A stretch of 28,407 nt of DNA, taken from the NCBI GenBank assembly GCA_013314795.1, contig JABUEZ010000001.1:1-28407 (forward strand). Reading direction: 5' to 3'. Source of the stretch: Candidatus Profundicultor aquiphilus (lineage in GTDB: Bacteria > Atribacterota > Atribacteria > Atribacterales > Caldatribacteriaceae). This document shows positions 1-6,082 of this stretch, piece after piece (position 1 is the first letter of the stretch; the number at the start of each line of letters is the position of its first letter). The notes beneath the pieces were generated by a model. The model searched no databases. It saw nothing but the letters and a program-made list of their open reading frames with translations, and had not been told where the DNA came from. The position numbers were made by a program, and so were the translations under genes.

Positions 1-274
1 TGGTCCCATAATAATAGGCCTTTATCATCACCGCCGAGGCCACTCCACAATTTCTGGTATTGCTCCAGTCTCCAGGAGGAACCTGAGGCAAAAAGGGAAC
101 ATCGAGGAGAATACGAGTGCCAGAATTCTCGACAAAACGAGCAGATACCCCACTCTCCAGATCAGGGCTGGAAAGATCAGGATTGGAAGGTAGTACCCCA
201 AGCTGCGGCGCGCAACCAGCAAGAAGCACGACTGCAAACCCTACCACTACCACGAGACTGGACCACTTCTTCAT
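1..274 (-). CDS. Predicted lipoprotein with a C39-like (Peptidase_C39_2) cysteine peptidase domain; partial, runs off the left edge
   Basis: Manual translation from ATG at 274 (SD AAGGGGG upstream): MKKWSSLVVVVGFAVVLLAGC (lipobox LAGC) APQLG...ILLDVPFLPQVPPGDWSNTRNCGVASAVMIKAYYYGT. The LxVP..Q......CG.AS..M...YY pattern is typical of the start of C39-like domains. No stop before the edge, so not in the ORF track. Confidence 0.8.
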   Translation of the reverse strand, partial: MKKWSSLVVVVGFAVVLLAGCAPQLGVLPSNPDLSSPDLESGVSARFVENSGTRILLDVPFLPQVPPGDWSNTRNCGVASAVMIKAYYYGT

Positions 275-332
275 CACGACACCCCCTTCTTTCCGAAGAG
301 GGGGAGGGGCGTTCTTCCACAAGTCCAAAAAA

Positions 333-428
333 ATAAGGAACTTGGCAGCCCGGCCACCATGGCTTTTCGCTTTAGGTCCGTGGCTTTGTGCCCTCCCCTT
401 TCGGAGAGTTTACCCTTTCATTTCCTAC
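333..428 (-). promoter_or_regulatory. Cyclic di-GMP-I (GEMM) riboswitch aptamer
   Basis: Minus strand reads AGGAAAUGAAAG-GGUAAA-CUCUCC-GAAA-GGGGAG-GGCAC-AAAGCCACGGACCUAAAGCGAAAAGCCAUGGUGGCCGGGCUGCC-AAGUUCCUU. It has the GNRA-capped P2, AAAGCC...GGCUGCC P3, CCUAA/AUGG receptor, and P1 AGGAA/UUCCU. It lies in the 5' UTR of the lipoprotein gene. Confidence 0.9.
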
Positions 429-434
429 CTATAA

Positions 435-461
435 TTATCGACCGAGAAGGCAAAAACTTTA
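435..461 (-). promoter_or_regulatory. Sigma28 (FliA/SigD)-type promoter
   Basis: TAAAGTTT (461-454), 11-nt spacer, GTCGATAA (442-435). Consensus is TAAAGTTT-N11-GCCGATAA, so one mismatch. The predicted start (~428) coincides with the 5' end of the riboswitch. Confidence 0.7.
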
Positions 462-498
462 GGGGGCAGAAAGAAAAAATCCTGTAAAATTTTAAAAA

Positions 499-2052
499 TT
501 ACCTGAAAAAGAATCCGGTATGAAACTGCTGATTTTTCCCTTCTTTCATTTTCTCATAGATCTTTGCAAACTCACACTCTGTTTCCTCAAACGCCTTGAG
601 AATGGCGGGATCAAAATGAGAGGGCATGGTCCGCCCATCTCCCTGAAGGATGATCCGGCAAGCCGTTTCATGATCAAACGCAGGTTTATAGGGCCTTGCA
701 CTTCTCAGGGCATCATACTGGTCTACAATGTTGACAATTCTGGCCTCAAGGGGTATTTCCTCACCCTTCAACCCTTTGGGATATCCACTCCCATCCCATC
801 GTTCATGGTGAAAGAGAGCAATGTTCCGTGCCATCTTCAACTTGGCATGCTCGCCAATAATCACTGCCCCATAGATGGTGTGCTGTTTGACCTTTTCCCA
901 CTCCTCCGGAGTTAATTTTTCGGGCTTCCGGAGGATCTCTGGAGAAAGATGAATCTTTCCCACGTCGTGCAAAGCCGCCTGCAGTCGAATCCCGTTAATG
1001 AACCTTTCCTCCATTCCCAGCCACCTGGCGATAAGGGCACTGTATTCACCGACCCGCAAAATATGATTCCCCACATCCTCGTCATGGACCTCTGCCACCC
1101 GGGCCAGAGCAAAAACGGTATATACAAAAGCTTCCTCCGTTTCTCTCATCTGTCCTGCGAGAGATTGAAAAAAGAGACACTGCATTACCAGATGATCAAG
1201 AACCGACGCATCGTACTCCGAAACTGGCCTTCCATAGTTCAACGCCACCACCACCAGGTGGTGGCTGAAATAGCCCACCATATTGGAAATCTTAATGTCA
1301 TAAAGACTCAAACGTCCGCGCAGGGCCACGACAAGGGGGTCTTCTTCCATATCCTGGTTATAGAAAAGAATCCTGGTTTCGGAAGGCAAGATAGGTAAAC
1401 ACCCAAGGTTAACAGGATTTCTCTCCACCTTATCAAAGGCAAAATAGTATTGATGCCACTGGCAGGCTCCTTTCTGGTCAGGAATACCAAGGAAGAGGAG
1501 CTCCGGTTTTTCTCGATCTTTCGCGTTTTTGCGCAATATCTGGCTCACCAGAATGCGGTCCACATCTCCAATGAAATCAAACTCCACCGGTTTAAACGTC
1601 CGGATCAAGTTCTTGCCAAAAGATGTAAGGTGCATAATACCGGCATAGGCAGAATTGAGCTGGTCATTTAGAGCCTTGACACGCAAAAGCATCCTGATTC
1701 TCGCCAGCACCTCAGCTTTATCAAAAGGTTTGGAGAGGAAATCCTCCGCCCCAGCCTCAATGGCCCTGATACGCTCTTCTTTGGCCGTAAGAGAGGTAAT
1801 CATCACCACAGGGATGTTCCGCAAAGATTTATCCTCTTTAATCTTTTGACACACTTCAAAACCATCCATCTCAGGCATCATGACATCAAGAAGCACGGCG
1901 TCAAAATGCTCTTTATTGAGCCGGAACAGTGCTTCTCTACCACTTTCAACCTTCACAACCTCATATCCCTGTGGCACCAACAACACCTCAAGCAAAACAA
2001 GATTCGAAGGTTCATCATCCACGCAGAGAATCCTGGGTTTACCGCTCATCAT
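499..2052 (-). CDS. Response regulator: REC, GAF-like middle region and HD-GYP c-di-GMP phosphodiesterase (RpfG-like)
   Basis: REC motifs ILCVDDE, LLDVMMP, FLSKP. HD-GYP motifs [43 protein letters not shown]. The middle region ends [24 protein letters not shown], resembling a GAF C-terminus. Confidence 0.93.
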
Positions 2053-2057
2053 CCCCC

Positions 2058-2429
2058 TTAGCTCCTTTCCCCCATGATTTTTCTGACGAGCTCCATCAAT
2101 TCCCTCGTATGGATTGGTTTGGCCAAATAACCGTCCACCCCGGCACGCACAATCTCTTCCTGCTCGCTTCTCATAGCAAAAGAAGTAACAGCGATAATTT
2201 TAATTCCCCGGGTAGAAGGATTATCCTTGAGAACTTTGATAGTGGTCAGGCCATTCATAACCGGCATCTGGATGTCCATGAGGATGAGATCCGGTTTCCA
2301 TGCTGCAGCCATTCGTATTCCTTCTTCACCGTTTGGAGCTTCAGCAACCTCATACTGGAAAAAGGCTAGAAGATCGTGCAATAATTTCCTGCTATCACTA
2401 TCGTCATCAACGATGAGAATTTTATTCAT
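2058..2429 (-). CDS. Single-domain response regulator (DivK/CheY-like)
   Basis: [34 protein letters not shown]; 123 aa. Confidence 0.93.
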
Positions 2430-2853
2430 TCCGCCCTCCTCCTCAACAGTCCTTCAAGAGTAGAGAGAAAGACATTCTGAGAAAACTTACCCTTTTCAAG
2501 GATTGCATCCACTTTTTGTAAAAGTCCAGTCTTTTTTCTATAGACAACTCCATGGCGGTCAGAACAACGACCGGGATGCGGGAAAATTCCTCTACAGTTT
2601 TAAGCAACTCGATCACCTCGAAACCACTCATATCAGACATCATGAGATCAAGCACCAGAAGATCTGGAGTACTTTCTCCAATCATCCTCAATCCCTCTCT
2701 TCCCGAAGAAGCAACTCGAACCTTATATCCCCTTTCCCCGCAACGCTCCTTCTATGATTTCCCTCTCCAGTTGGTCATCTTCAATAACCAGAATTTTTCG
2801 GTCTCCCGGAACACTAAAAGCTTCCTCACTCTTCCCCGAAGGAGCAGCCCCCC
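2426..2853 (-). pseudogene. Frameshifted REC domain; probably the C-terminal receiver of a hybrid histidine kinase
   Basis: Three frames rejoin into [73 protein letters not shown]...[48 protein letters not shown]. This needs one base fewer at C6 2848-2853, one fewer at C4 2729-2732, and one more at T6 2532-2537. The restored TGA overlaps the next ATG (ATGA at 2426-2429). Confidence 0.8.
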
Positions 2854-5093
2854 ACCGCAGAAGTTCTTTTCACCGGAAGAGTAAATGTAAAGCAACTCCC
2901 TTTACCGTACTCGCTCTCTACCCAGATTTTTCCTCCGTGGAGCTCTACAAGGCGCTTGGTGAGCGCAAGACCCAGCCCAGCACCTTCGTGCTTCTTAGTA
3001 TAGGGAGATTCAAGCTGAGTAAATTCTTGGAAGAGCTTAGGAATGTCCTCCGATTTGATACCCATTCCGGTATCCTTAACACTGATTTCCAGAAAGTCAT
3101 CGCTTGCCCGCCTGGCTATTACCTCTACTGAACCACCTTCCGGAGTAAATTTCACGCCATTACTCAGCAGATTAAAGAGTATCTGTTTGAGCTTTCGTTC
3201 ATCAGCCTCGACTTCGATGTCAGCCTCAGGGAAAATGGTCAACTCCATTTTTATACGGTGCTTCATGGCTTTCTCTCGCAGTAACGATACCGAGGATTCA
3301 AGCACTTCTTTGAGCCGGAATTTCTCCAGATTCAATTCCATTTTGCCAGATTCAATTTTGGAAAGGTCCAGAATATCGTTGATAAGATCCAGAAGATGCT
3401 GGGAACTTTTGTGGACAATTTCCACATATTCCCTTTGTTTTTCATTCAGTTCCCCGTAAAGGCCGTCTCTCAGGATTTCAGTAAACCCAATGATGGCATT
3501 GAGAGGAGTCCGCAGTTCATGGCTCATGTTGGACAGAAAGTCCGATTTGGCCCTGGAAGCCTCACTCAATCTTAAATTTACTTCGTGTAGAGCTCTCTCG
3601 CGCTCCTCCAATTCCCAGTTCATGGTTTTCAGTTCCTCGTTCATGGCCCGGAGTTCCTGATTGAGCCGTAACAGGTCTTCAGATAGCTCTTTCTGCGACA
3701 GGCTGGCCTTCAGTTCTTGAATGCCTATGACCATTTGATACGTCATTCTTCCGATCATTTCTCGTAATTCTTCTTCATCAAATCCCCGGACTGAACCCAA
3801 CTCCAGCGCCCCCATTACGTTTTCTCGATAGAAAAGGGGAATGGCCACCACCTCCCGGGGGAAAATCGTTCTTGAAACCATATTCACCGAGAGGGATATT
3901 TCCGATGGGATATCCTGAAACCGTACCATCCTCCGGTGCCGAATACACTCATAAATTATTCTGTCTGGTTCAAGTGGTTTTTCAACCCCAAAGGAAGCCA
4001 CCGCCTCTATCTCCTCTCCTTCCACAAGATACATCACGCCCAAATCCATGTATCCGCACCGGTTTAGATACGATAACACCTCAACACCCAGATCCTCCAT
4101 GCACTCAAAACTTTTGTTGAAAATAGCCAGAAAACCAGCGTATATTCTTTCTGCTTTTTCTTTCCGTTGTAAAGCTTCAGCAAGCACCGTCCTCCGGTAA
4201 GCAAAAAACCCATTGAGCAGGACCATGCACATAATAAAAATAAATATGCTGTCCCGAAGAGGCCGCACTGACGCAAGGATAGCCCTCAGAGGTCGCTGAA
4301 CGACGACTCCCAGCCCCAGTGTTTCCAGCAAACCATAAACAACCACCACCTTTTCTCTCCTCAAAGGGTCATACACTATCTCTCTCTTTACTTCGCCTTC
4401 CTTAAGGCCGATAATCGCGGGAAATTCCTCACCAAATACTCCCCCAGAGTGATAAACCACACCTCCCTTTTTATCGGTGATCACAATCATTTCCTCTGGG
4501 AAAACTTTTATCTTCGCTACCATCTCTTCAAGGTAACCCTCTGGATACACCATGAGCAAAACAGCCACATTATCTCCTTCAGCAGATTTCAGGGGGGTCA
4601 GTATAAGTATGGCAGGAGCTTCACCCGGCATCAGAGCAAAAAAACCTGATAAAGGGGACCAGGTTTGCGCAAATTGCCGAAACCAGACCTGGTGAGATAC
4701 ATCGCTTCCCGGAAGTACTCTCCCTTCAGGATATTGGGCCAGGACATTCCCTTCTGGGGACAGAACCATAGCAGACTCCATTACCCCTGAAACGGTCACC
4801 AGATTTTCTAAATGCCCGGTAACCTCTTCCCAATTTTTTTCCATCAAGGAAACCCTCAAAGAAGGACGGGCAACATACGATTCTCCAAGCTTCAGGGCTT
4901 CTTCAAATCGCCCCGAAAAAGATTCGACCATAGCCTGAAGACGATCTTCCTCTTTCTGGAATGCATCCTTTTCCAATATGCCTGTGAAAAGAAACTGAAC
5001 ATACAGGAGAAACAGCAAAAAGGGAAGGACACCGAAGAACACTTCTTTGAGGGCAATCCAGGGAAAGATCGCTTTTCTCTTCGTAAAGCTCAC
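2826..5093 (-). CDS. Membrane sensor histidine kinase (TM, Cache-like, TM, GAF, coiled coil, HisKA, HATPase_c)
   Basis: H box [18 protein letters not shown] box [16 protein letters not shown] boxes VKDTGMGI and GAGLGLAL, and [14 protein letters not shown]. Two hydrophobic segments flank an extracytoplasmic domain. Start moved from 5279 to GTG 5093, just after the cheR stop. Confidence 0.9.
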
Positions 5094-5095
5094 CT

Positions 5096-5929
5096 CTATC
5101 TCATTTTCTGAAAAACATTGCTCCGGGGAATCACTTCCCGATACTCCGTCACCACATCTTCGGGCAGAACTTCTGTTTCTCCCAGCACAAGATATCCTCT
5201 GGGGAAAAGAGAGCGCGACACAATCCGAAACACCCTTCCGGCTATCTCCCGCTTCAAATATATAATCACATTCCGGCACAGGACCAGACGATAACTCGAA
5301 AACAAACCTTCCCTGGGAATCGTACCATTCGTAATATCGTGATATACAAAATGCACCATTTTCCTGATCCCTTCTGAAAGCACATACTTTTCTCCCTTTT
5401 GCCGGAAGTACTGATCAAGGGACACTTTTTTAACTTCCTGCAGGGCTTTCCCTTCGTACTCGGCTTTTCTGGCCTTCTCCAGAGCATCCAGGTCTACGTC
5501 GGTAGCAACAATCAACGGCTCCAAAGTCGTGTTTTTCAGTATCAACTCCCTTAGAAGAATAGCGACCGAATATGGTTCTTCCCCCTCACCGCAACCAGTA
5601 CTCCACATCCTGACCTGTTCCCCTGTATGCCATCTGCAAAGCTCCAGTAAAACAATCTCTCCAACCACTACAAAGGTCAAGGATCCCCGGAAAAACTCGC
5701 TCACATTAAAATCAACCATTGAAGAAGGACATCTATTTCCTCAGAATGTTCTCGGAGATAATCAAGGTAGCACGAATAATCTTCCAAGTCCAAAGCCTTA
5801 AGGCGGATTTGTATCCCACGTAAAATGGTATCCTGACGGTAAAGAGTAAATTCAATACCTCTTTTTTTTCTTTAGATAGGAATAAAGGGAACCAAGGATT
5901 GCTTCCAGTTCGTCCTTCTCCAGAACCAT
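5096..5929 (-). pseudogene. cheR: CheR-type protein-glutamate methyltransferase with two frameshifts in the N-terminal part
   Basis: ORF 5096-5719 carries [45 protein letters not shown]. Upstream frames give MVLEKDELEAILGSLYSYLKKK/RGIEFTLYRQDTILRGIQIRLKALDLEDYSCYLDYLREHSEEIDVLLQWLI/FNVSEFFR, the missing CheR N-domain. Shifts are at T8 5862-5869 (one extra base) and A4 5708-5711 (one missing). Confidence 0.85.
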
Positions 5930-6082
5930 TATACCAGCTTCTCGTCTTCCAAGTTAGAGTCAAGTTACCGAAAAAATGACCAATCTTCTTGAGCGGTACA
6001 TCTTGAAAAAATCCTCGGGGAATAAACTCTCTCAAAATCCAGTTTTCATTACCGAAAACCATCATACAGGGGAGGGGAAAAA

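Follow-up and report, generated by a model that had tools for sequence, protein, structure and literature searches.

A flagellar-type promoter and a c-di-GMP aptamer precede a lipoprotein gene

What decides when the lipoprotein gene at one end of a Candidatus Profundicultor aquiphilus contig is expressed? The window analyzed here, i.e., the whole stretch of 28,407 nucleotides, is the entire contig C91 of a metagenome-assembled genome of this uncultured hot-spring member of the Atribacterota (2.08 Mb in 313 contigs, 88.5% complete). A preliminary description of its first 461 positions had proposed a promoter for the flagellar sigma factor sigma-28, a class-I cyclic di-GMP (c-di-GMP) riboswitch, and a gene for a C39-like peptidase lipoprotein that these two elements would doubly gate. 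All three elements were confirmed, every one on the minus strand, where the order from 5′ to 3′ is sensor kinase, receiver, receiver plus HD-GYP, promoter, aptamer, and lipoprotein gene. The double gating is supported as well, and our analyses add a sign to it: with a probability that we put at roughly 65%, flagellar sigma-28 and a canonical class-I c-di-GMP OFF riboswitch jointly gate a lipoprotein peptidase of the Peptidase_C39_2 family. Mechanistically, RNA polymerase with sigma-28 (FliA) would start a minus-strand transcript near position 428, the first ~90 nt of that transcript would fold into the class-I c-di-GMP aptamer, and production of the peptidase would require active sigma-28 together with low c-di-GMP, i.e., the motile state.

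The sigma-28 type promoter (435..461) consists of a −35 element TAAAGTTT (461..454), an 11-nt spacer, and a −10 element GTCGATAA (442..435), and it agrees with the consensus TAAAGTTT-N11-GCCGATAA at 15 of 16 positions, with one mismatch and the correct spacing. It is the sole match in the window at two or fewer mismatches, where 0.02 would be expected by chance; genome-wide, six sites were found with at most one mismatch and 11 with at most two, and shuffled sequences give 1–4. Transcription is predicted to start at ~430..427, and the 5′ strand of the helix P1 that closes the aptamer begins at 426, 9 nt past the −10 element; therefore, the aptamer begins at the predicted start of the transcript. 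The promoter is also conserved across orthologues: in five relatives, 10 of 12 aptamers have the motif CTAAAG-N15-CCGATA upstream, and the remaining two retain the −10 element. Apart from this motif, the sequence upstream of these aptamers is variable, and the distance from motif to aptamer ranges from ~8 to 95 nt while the spacing within the motif is constant. The same genome carries a flagellin promoter (TAAAGTTT-N11-GCCGATTA, C20:4237) that stands alone with no aptamer, and looser sigma-28 matches precede two operons with chemoreceptor (methyl-accepting chemotaxis protein, MCP) genes on contigs C206 and C248.

The aptamer, including P1, spans positions 336..426. Searched alone, the Rfam covariance model RF01051 (c-di-GMP-I, also called GEMM-I) matches at 424..341 over its full length (1–87) with 75.1 bits against a gathering score of 35. 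The equivalents of the ligand-contacting nucleotides, read from alignments, are canonical, namely AAGGGUAAAC (G20), CACAAAGCC (A47), and GCUGCC (C92), where the positions are given in Vc2 numbering, and P1b with its GAAA tetraloop lies at 408..393. P1 itself falls outside the RF01051 model and was found by pairing: AGGAA (426..422) pairs with UUCCU (340..336). Across 24 related leaders, compensatory changes occur at all six P1 pairs (e.g., AGGAA/UUCCU, GGAGA/UCUCC, GGGA/UCCC, and CAGAAA/UUUCUG), 82% of the cells are paired, and none of 500 shuffles reached the observed score. The locus thus carries a canonical aptamer at the predicted transcript start, where the aptamer had been proposed to begin.

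The gene product is a predicted lipid-anchored cysteine peptidase

The lipoprotein gene (2..274, minus strand) starts with an ATG at 274 (a GTG lies at 277) and is interrupted by the contig end, at base 2, after 91 codons, so the window holds its 5′ part. The encoded signal peptide MKKWSSLVVVVGFAVVLLAGC meets the lipobox pattern [LVI][ASTVI][GAS]C, with the lipobox Cys codon at 214..212, and the lipobox residues Gly19 and Cys20 are invariant in 13 sequences. After the signal peptide follows DVPFLPQVPPGDWSNTRNCG, whose candidate catalytic Cys (in NCG) is encoded at 49..47. The fragment includes only positions 1–29 of the Pfam profile Peptidase_C39_2 (PF13529) and scores 15.2–17.4 bits, below the threshold of 24; in place of the incomplete gene, we therefore used the orthologue of the same genus, which is 92% identical over the shared part and scores 46 bits. 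Full-length orthologues (212–222 aa, ~214) score 46–52 bits and keep the lipobox Gly-Cys and the motifs DVPFLPQVPPGDWxNTRNCG, KHAM, and DPG. Their candidate catalytic triad consists of an invariant Cys70 together with His166 (in KHAM) and Asp182 (in DPG), the latter two being kept in at least 90% of 12 full-length orthologues. The Pfam score that the preliminary description had called for is thus below threshold for the short fragment and above it for the orthologues, and with the lipobox and the Cys, His, and Asp conserved there, a C39-like peptidase lipoprotein is supported as the predicted output of the riboswitch. The product is predicted to be a cysteine peptidase of the Peptidase_C39_2 family that has a papain fold and is anchored by a lipid.

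An AlphaFold (AF2) model with a mean predicted local distance difference test (pLDDT) score of 76 is closest to the C39-like protein 3ERV of Bacillus anthracis, the pseudomurein endoisopeptidase PeiR, and the C39 domains of ComA and PCAT1, and the nearest Swiss-Prot models are those of Rv1268c and YvpB, both uncharacterised. Fold searches returned clan-CA peptidases and assigned no function, the search of PDB sequences returned 3ERV only, and a search of NCBIfam found no family for the peptidase. Neighbors in the Atlas include phage lysins in which C39_2 is fused to glucosaminidase or lysozyme domains, and cell-wall peptidase activity is therefore a live option. The peptidase may release or process a surface protein, or it may trim the cell wall.

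A search of the same assembly for the missing 3′ portion found neither a contig end that overlaps the start of the window nor another PF13529 match. The region 3′ of the peptidase gene, which in the window would fall past the contig end, often holds a second lipoprotein gene in relatives (L015, ~150–250; L016, ~2160–2200; L023, ~2075–2100). The product of this second gene has a weak CarboxypepD_reg-like match, and in L023 the gene overlaps the stop codon of the peptidase gene. The two genes flank a palindrome of the type AGGAAAATTTTCCTATAG in three genera.

The aptamer-peptidase pair is conserved in one order of Atribacterota

Peptidase orthologues were detected in 25 of 60 relatives, all of them in four families (f1–f4) of one order, and the other families of the phylum have zero to one weak match. 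A pattern search of species-representative genomes likewise placed orthologues in the Atribacterota, namely in Candidatus Profundicultor thermophilus (same genus), Caldatribacterium, and 'Atrimonadaceae'. A class-I aptamer lies directly upstream of the orthologue in 13 of the 14 loci fetched and scanned with cmscan, the exception being a 575-nt contig without room for one, and coordinates give the pair in ten more genomes. In total, the aptamer precedes the peptidase gene in at least 23 of the 25 genomes, with the promoter motif conserved alongside, and four extra loci from public collections carry the pair too. No aptamer was found with the distant peptidase homologues of Kerfeldbacteria, Paceibacterota, and Myxococcales. 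In two complete genomes (G017 and G020), the peptidase aptamer is the only GEMM-I aptamer, which points to the C39_2 lipoprotein as a core riboswitch target.

Families f5 and f7 are rich in GEMM-I aptamers and lack the peptidase. Their genomes have up to 17 such aptamers, several of them in tandem pairs ~35 nt apart (e.g., G047:C231:378-588, G039:C61:10140-10351, G044:C5:45489-45700, and G054:C30:24326-24538). Separately, the riboswitch-peptidase unit of Candidatus Caldatribacterium sp. SIUC1 is preceded, at a distance of ~500 nt, by a CRISPR array with RF01315 repeats (L045, 603–835).

The same module precedes other surface proteins of the genome

Having established the pair, we turn to the other genes that share its control elements. 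All four strong GEMM-I aptamers of the genome follow a sigma-28 type promoter, and three of the six best sigma-28 matches genome-wide (on C91, C209, and C290) directly precede GEMM-I aptamers. The other three belong to the flagellin gene at C20:4237, a TPR/glycosyltransferase gene upstream of flagellin, and a small open reading frame (ORF). The aptamers on C209 (9269-10510) and C290 (~4900-6065) precede paralogous lipoproteins that have a CarboxypepD_reg domain, a Pro/Thr linker, and a C-terminal HELGHxxGFxGH motif unrecognized by Pfam; from this motif, they look like zinc metalloproteases. The fourth aptamer (C187:6906-9060) precedes a chemoreceptor with a dCache domain; the promoter there combines a good −10 element with a weak −35 element. 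The same aptamer targets were found in five relatives. Because the same module precedes two metalloprotease-like lipoproteins and a chemoreceptor, the peptidase is probably part of a small cell-surface regulon of the motile state.

The small ORF that one of these six sigma-28 matches would drive (59 aa, MKMKIRTNQ..., C221:7631 to ~7390; L058, 493–726, minus strand) has no assigned family, and its position in the regulon would suit a candidate FlgM-like anti-sigma factor.

The leader is most likely an OFF switch

The remaining leader, also on the minus strand, holds three elements between aptamer and gene. A U tract UAUUUUUUU (327..335) lies directly 3′ of the P1 3′ strand and is a putative termination site; a switch strand ACGCCCCUCCCCCUCUUC (295..312) pairs, in predicted folds, with either the Shine-Dalgarno region or the aptamer core; and the Shine-Dalgarno region AGAAGGGGGUG (280..290) lies in a predicted hairpin with 295..306. 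Three points are inferred: which way the switch acts, that transcription terminates at the U tract, and what the module does physiologically. The leader is most likely an OFF switch, as the only strand that masks the ribosome-binding site also competes with the aptamer, so that a locked aptamer would free the masker, and as P1 directly followed by a U tract has the geometry of an intrinsic terminator when locked by the ligand. With c-di-GMP bound, P1 would be locked as a stem directly before the U tract and cause premature termination, and nothing would keep the switch strand from masking the ribosome-binding site. In the ligand-free transcript, this strand would be captured by the aptamer core upon transcription, leaving the ribosome site open.

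Comparison of related leaders is consistent with such a platform. A U-rich run follows P1 immediately in 8 of 24 leaders, which belong to at least two gene families, and a hairpin masking either the Shine-Dalgarno region or the start codon is predicted in all 16 leaders examined, with the minimum free energy (MFE) fold of the window containing it over the Shine-Dalgarno region. The alternative partner of the switch strand is the aptamer core (the 3′ strands of P1b and P1a). Indels hinder alignment of the platform, and support for this helix comes from duplex energies and visible compensatory changes: the duplex of switch strand and aptamer reaches −27.9 kcal/mol in the window (z −3.8), the 5′ strand of the masker is complementary to the aptamer across leaders (duplexes of −19 to −39 kcal/mol, z −2.2 to −5.7 against shuffles), and GGGGAG/CCUC is replaced by GGAGAG/CUCU. 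When transcripts were folded up to the switch strand, i.e., before the ribosome-binding site, the strand paired with the aptamer in 11 of 11 scorable leaders; this pairing is 5–16 kcal/mol better than leaving the strand single (6 kcal/mol in the window) and breaks P1b, P1a, or the junction.

Points against the double gate and rival explanations

Several observations weigh against the double gate, and we consider them here together with the explanations that they might favor. RNA-seq data were sought for the locus, and the runs that contain the sequence are all DNA runs, from subsurface, sludge, and hot-spring metagenomes. The peptidase gene is cut at the contig end, with its catalytic His and Asp visible in orthologues only.

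The sign of the switch faces the strongest rival, in which the ribosome-site hairpin and the U tract are constitutive and c-di-GMP either activates expression (an ON switch) or does nothing. Folding of full leaders speaks for it: at equilibrium, the OFF fold, with aptamer and masking hairpin together, is favored without ligand by 1–14 kcal/mol, so that no switch is seen from these folds by themselves, and in the window, the full-leader MFE structure holds both elements without ligand and is 6.9 kcal/mol better than the fold that leaves the Shine-Dalgarno region free. Switching would therefore have to be kinetic. In addition, a 5-bp P1 that closes an 84-nt junction would be an unusual terminator stem, and at least one class-I riboswitch of Clostridioides difficile, Cdi-1-1, is an ON switch. 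Against this rival, the sole strand that masks the ribosome-binding site is the one competing with the aptamer, the immediate succession of P1 helix and U tract also predicts OFF, and no anti-masker element that ligand binding could release was found. We consider an ON switch or a non-responsive leader unlikely and retain the OFF switch.

A second rival concerns the source of the signal. The preliminary description had envisaged a local circuit in which the adjacent two-component system sets the ligand level, making the peptidase its dedicated output. The identity that it gave to the directly upstream gene is right: the block consists, on the minus strand, of a sensor kinase gene (5279..2826), a receiver protein gene (2429..2058), and, as its last member, a gene (499..2052) whose product of 517 aa matches HD_5 with 114.3 bits and Response_reg with 105.8 bits in Pfam and has the HD, HHE, and GYP motifs at residues 362, 415, and 423, and which is a genuine receiver plus HD-GYP phosphodiesterase. 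This gene ends 37 nt from the −35 element on the same strand, and no canonical terminator was found between it and the promoter, the one match (359..343) lying inside the aptamer; read-through transcripts may therefore also feed the leader, which is another point against sole control by sigma-28. The sign would fit a local circuit as well, as degradation of c-di-GMP by the HD-GYP protein would relieve the repression by an OFF switch, and both genomes of the genus share the adjacency. It is seen only in this genus, however: in 12 orthologous loci outside the genus, no HD-GYP homologue occurs within ~1.3–1.5 kb upstream, where unrelated genes are found, and yet riboswitch and promoter are kept. 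Even in the same-genus genome (G001), the HD-GYP orthologue (L015, 1183–2460) is split into three reading frames, either by a run of sequencing errors or because the gene is decaying. Adjacency is also weak evidence because the genome encodes at least 11 HD_5 and at least 18 GGDEF domains. The local circuit is thus not supported, and a c-di-GMP pool set specifically by this neighbor is rather improbable.

A third rival holds that the promoter match is unused and that transcripts of the leader stem from read-through of the upstream operon or from a promoter that went unrecognized. It draws on the missing terminator 3′ of the HD-GYP gene and on the fact that fliA, whose presence the preliminary description had proposed to check, is formally not in the assembly: nothing scores above the TIGR02479 cut-off, with rpoD as the best match, and tblastn with the FliA proteins of relatives returned rpoD as the sole match. 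This absence is probably explained by an assembly gap. Relatives have the gene order cheC, cheD, fliA, and then a gene of ~475 aa; here, cheC-cheD stands at the very start of C18 (C18:1-1088), where cheD is truncated, and the ~475-aa gene breaks off at the end of C304 (C304:4776-5931), which would place fliA in the gap between two contig ends. We accordingly rejected the idea of a genome without sigma-28. Of the 31 genomes of the order, 29 have a FliA that exceeds the curated cut-off, compared to none of 27 genomes in families f5 and f7. The other genome of the genus yields no fliA either, which would again count against the double gate, but it also lacks the gene downstream of fliA, so the region is simply unassembled there. 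The motif is moreover conserved in orthologous and paralogous leaders while the surrounding sequence varies, it also precedes flagellin and MCP genes, and no sigma-70-like site was found at positions 1..700 of the window. An unused promoter match is, taken together, quite improbable, and transcription from the sigma-28 type promoter is preferred.

Finally, a last rival, in which the aptamer is of the c-di-GMP-I-GGC variant class (RF03167) and senses another ligand, is very improbable, as RF01051 scores higher (75.1 bits), the variant-defining G (consensus GACGCGAAgCc) faces an A in the window (GGCACAAAGCC) when aligned to RF03167, an orthologue that shares the 5′ half exactly is aligned as an ordinary member of RF01051, and G20 is kept, against the A20 of the cGAMP-selective GEMM-Ib type. 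The variant is named by cmscan with clan competition (423..340, 64.6 bits against a gathering score of 59, which reflects overall similarity only), and we rejected this label as an artefact of clan competition by E-value. Two other aptamers receive it likewise (L015, 1024–1107, in the same-genus genome, and L024, 827–910), again with a higher RF01051 score and the diagnostic A. Rfam clan competition can thus label canonical GEMM-I aptamers as the GGC variant, which is a trap for automatic annotation.

Meaning and comparison with known systems

Atribacterota are abundant in the subsurface and in hot springs and almost uncultured, and their regulation is known from sequence only. The double gate would give this lineage a compact, testable rule, in which flagellar sigma and low c-di-GMP switch on a few lipid-anchored peptidases. 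A broader generalization is more tentative, and we rate it somewhat below even odds: almost every c-di-GMP-I riboswitch of the flagellated Atribacterota order may sit on a sigma-28 transcript and act as an AND-NOT gate for lipid-anchored exoenzymes (the C39_2 peptidase, the sole target in some genomes, and the metzincin-like lipoproteins) and a chemoreceptor, forming a 'detach and swim' regulon of surface remodelling in which P1 doubles as a terminator stem in a third of the leaders. Such a P1 followed by a U tract would be a possible minimal design of a terminator.

In open-access papers and bioRxiv, we found no description of a sigma-28 promoter coupled to a c-di-GMP riboswitch, of a C39-like output of such a riboswitch, or of c-di-GMP riboswitches in Atribacterota. 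The preliminary description had called the C39-like output unfamiliar; this stands insofar as no paper was found, and does not extend to secreted proteases in general, one of which, ZmpI, is already known under a class-I OFF riboswitch (PMC6200980). The peptidase adds a cysteine peptidase family with an uncharacterised function to the outputs of c-di-GMP riboswitches. Its nearest structures and models, 3ERV, B. subtilis YvpB, and Mycobacterium tuberculosis Rv1268c, are likewise exported stand-alone C39_2 proteins; they are ~17–20% identical, functionally uncharacterised, and none is known to be riboswitch-controlled.

The promoter side of the gate has clear parallels. The autolysins LytC, LytD, and LytF of B. 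subtilis belong to the sigma-D (sigma-28) regulon. In Bdellovibrio, the FliA regulon includes proteases; no FliA promoter is listed there for merRNA, the c-di-GMP riboswitch RNA, and no gene lies downstream of it (PMC3627812). In both regulons, and by prediction here, exported hydrolases are under the flagellar sigma factor along with flagellin and chemoreceptors, but the hydrolase genes of B. subtilis and Bdellovibrio have no riboswitch. Low c-di-GMP also releases the activity of a periplasmic cysteine protease that remodels the surface in the LapD/LapG system of Pseudomonas fluorescens (PMC3032545). In contrast to the present locus, LapG is controlled post-translationally by a protein receptor and belongs to another peptidase family, and no LapA-like substrate was identified here.

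On the RNA side, the aptamer resembles Vc2/GEMM-I (RF01051) in P1, P1a/P1b with the GAAA tetraloop, P2 with its receptor, the contact nucleotides, and its place in a 5′ leader. The present leaders differ in their occurrence in Atribacterota, a new downstream gene family, P1 followed by a U tract in a third of leaders, and a platform predicted to compete with P1b/P1a rather than with P1 alone. The closest counterpart in logic is Cdi-1-12 of C. difficile, a class-I OFF riboswitch that represses the secreted protease ZmpI (PPEP-1) at high c-di-GMP (PMC6200980). In both cases, a class-I switch, here of predicted OFF sign, restricts an exported protease to motile cells, in which c-di-GMP is low. 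The zinc metalloprotease ZmpI cleaves known adhesin substrates, whereas the Atribacterota gene encodes a C39_2 cysteine peptidase lipoprotein behind a sigma-28 type promoter. Overall, the aptamer is an ordinary RF01051 member, and the logic of the locus matches that of Cdi-1-12 and ZmpI rather than representing a new kind of switch.

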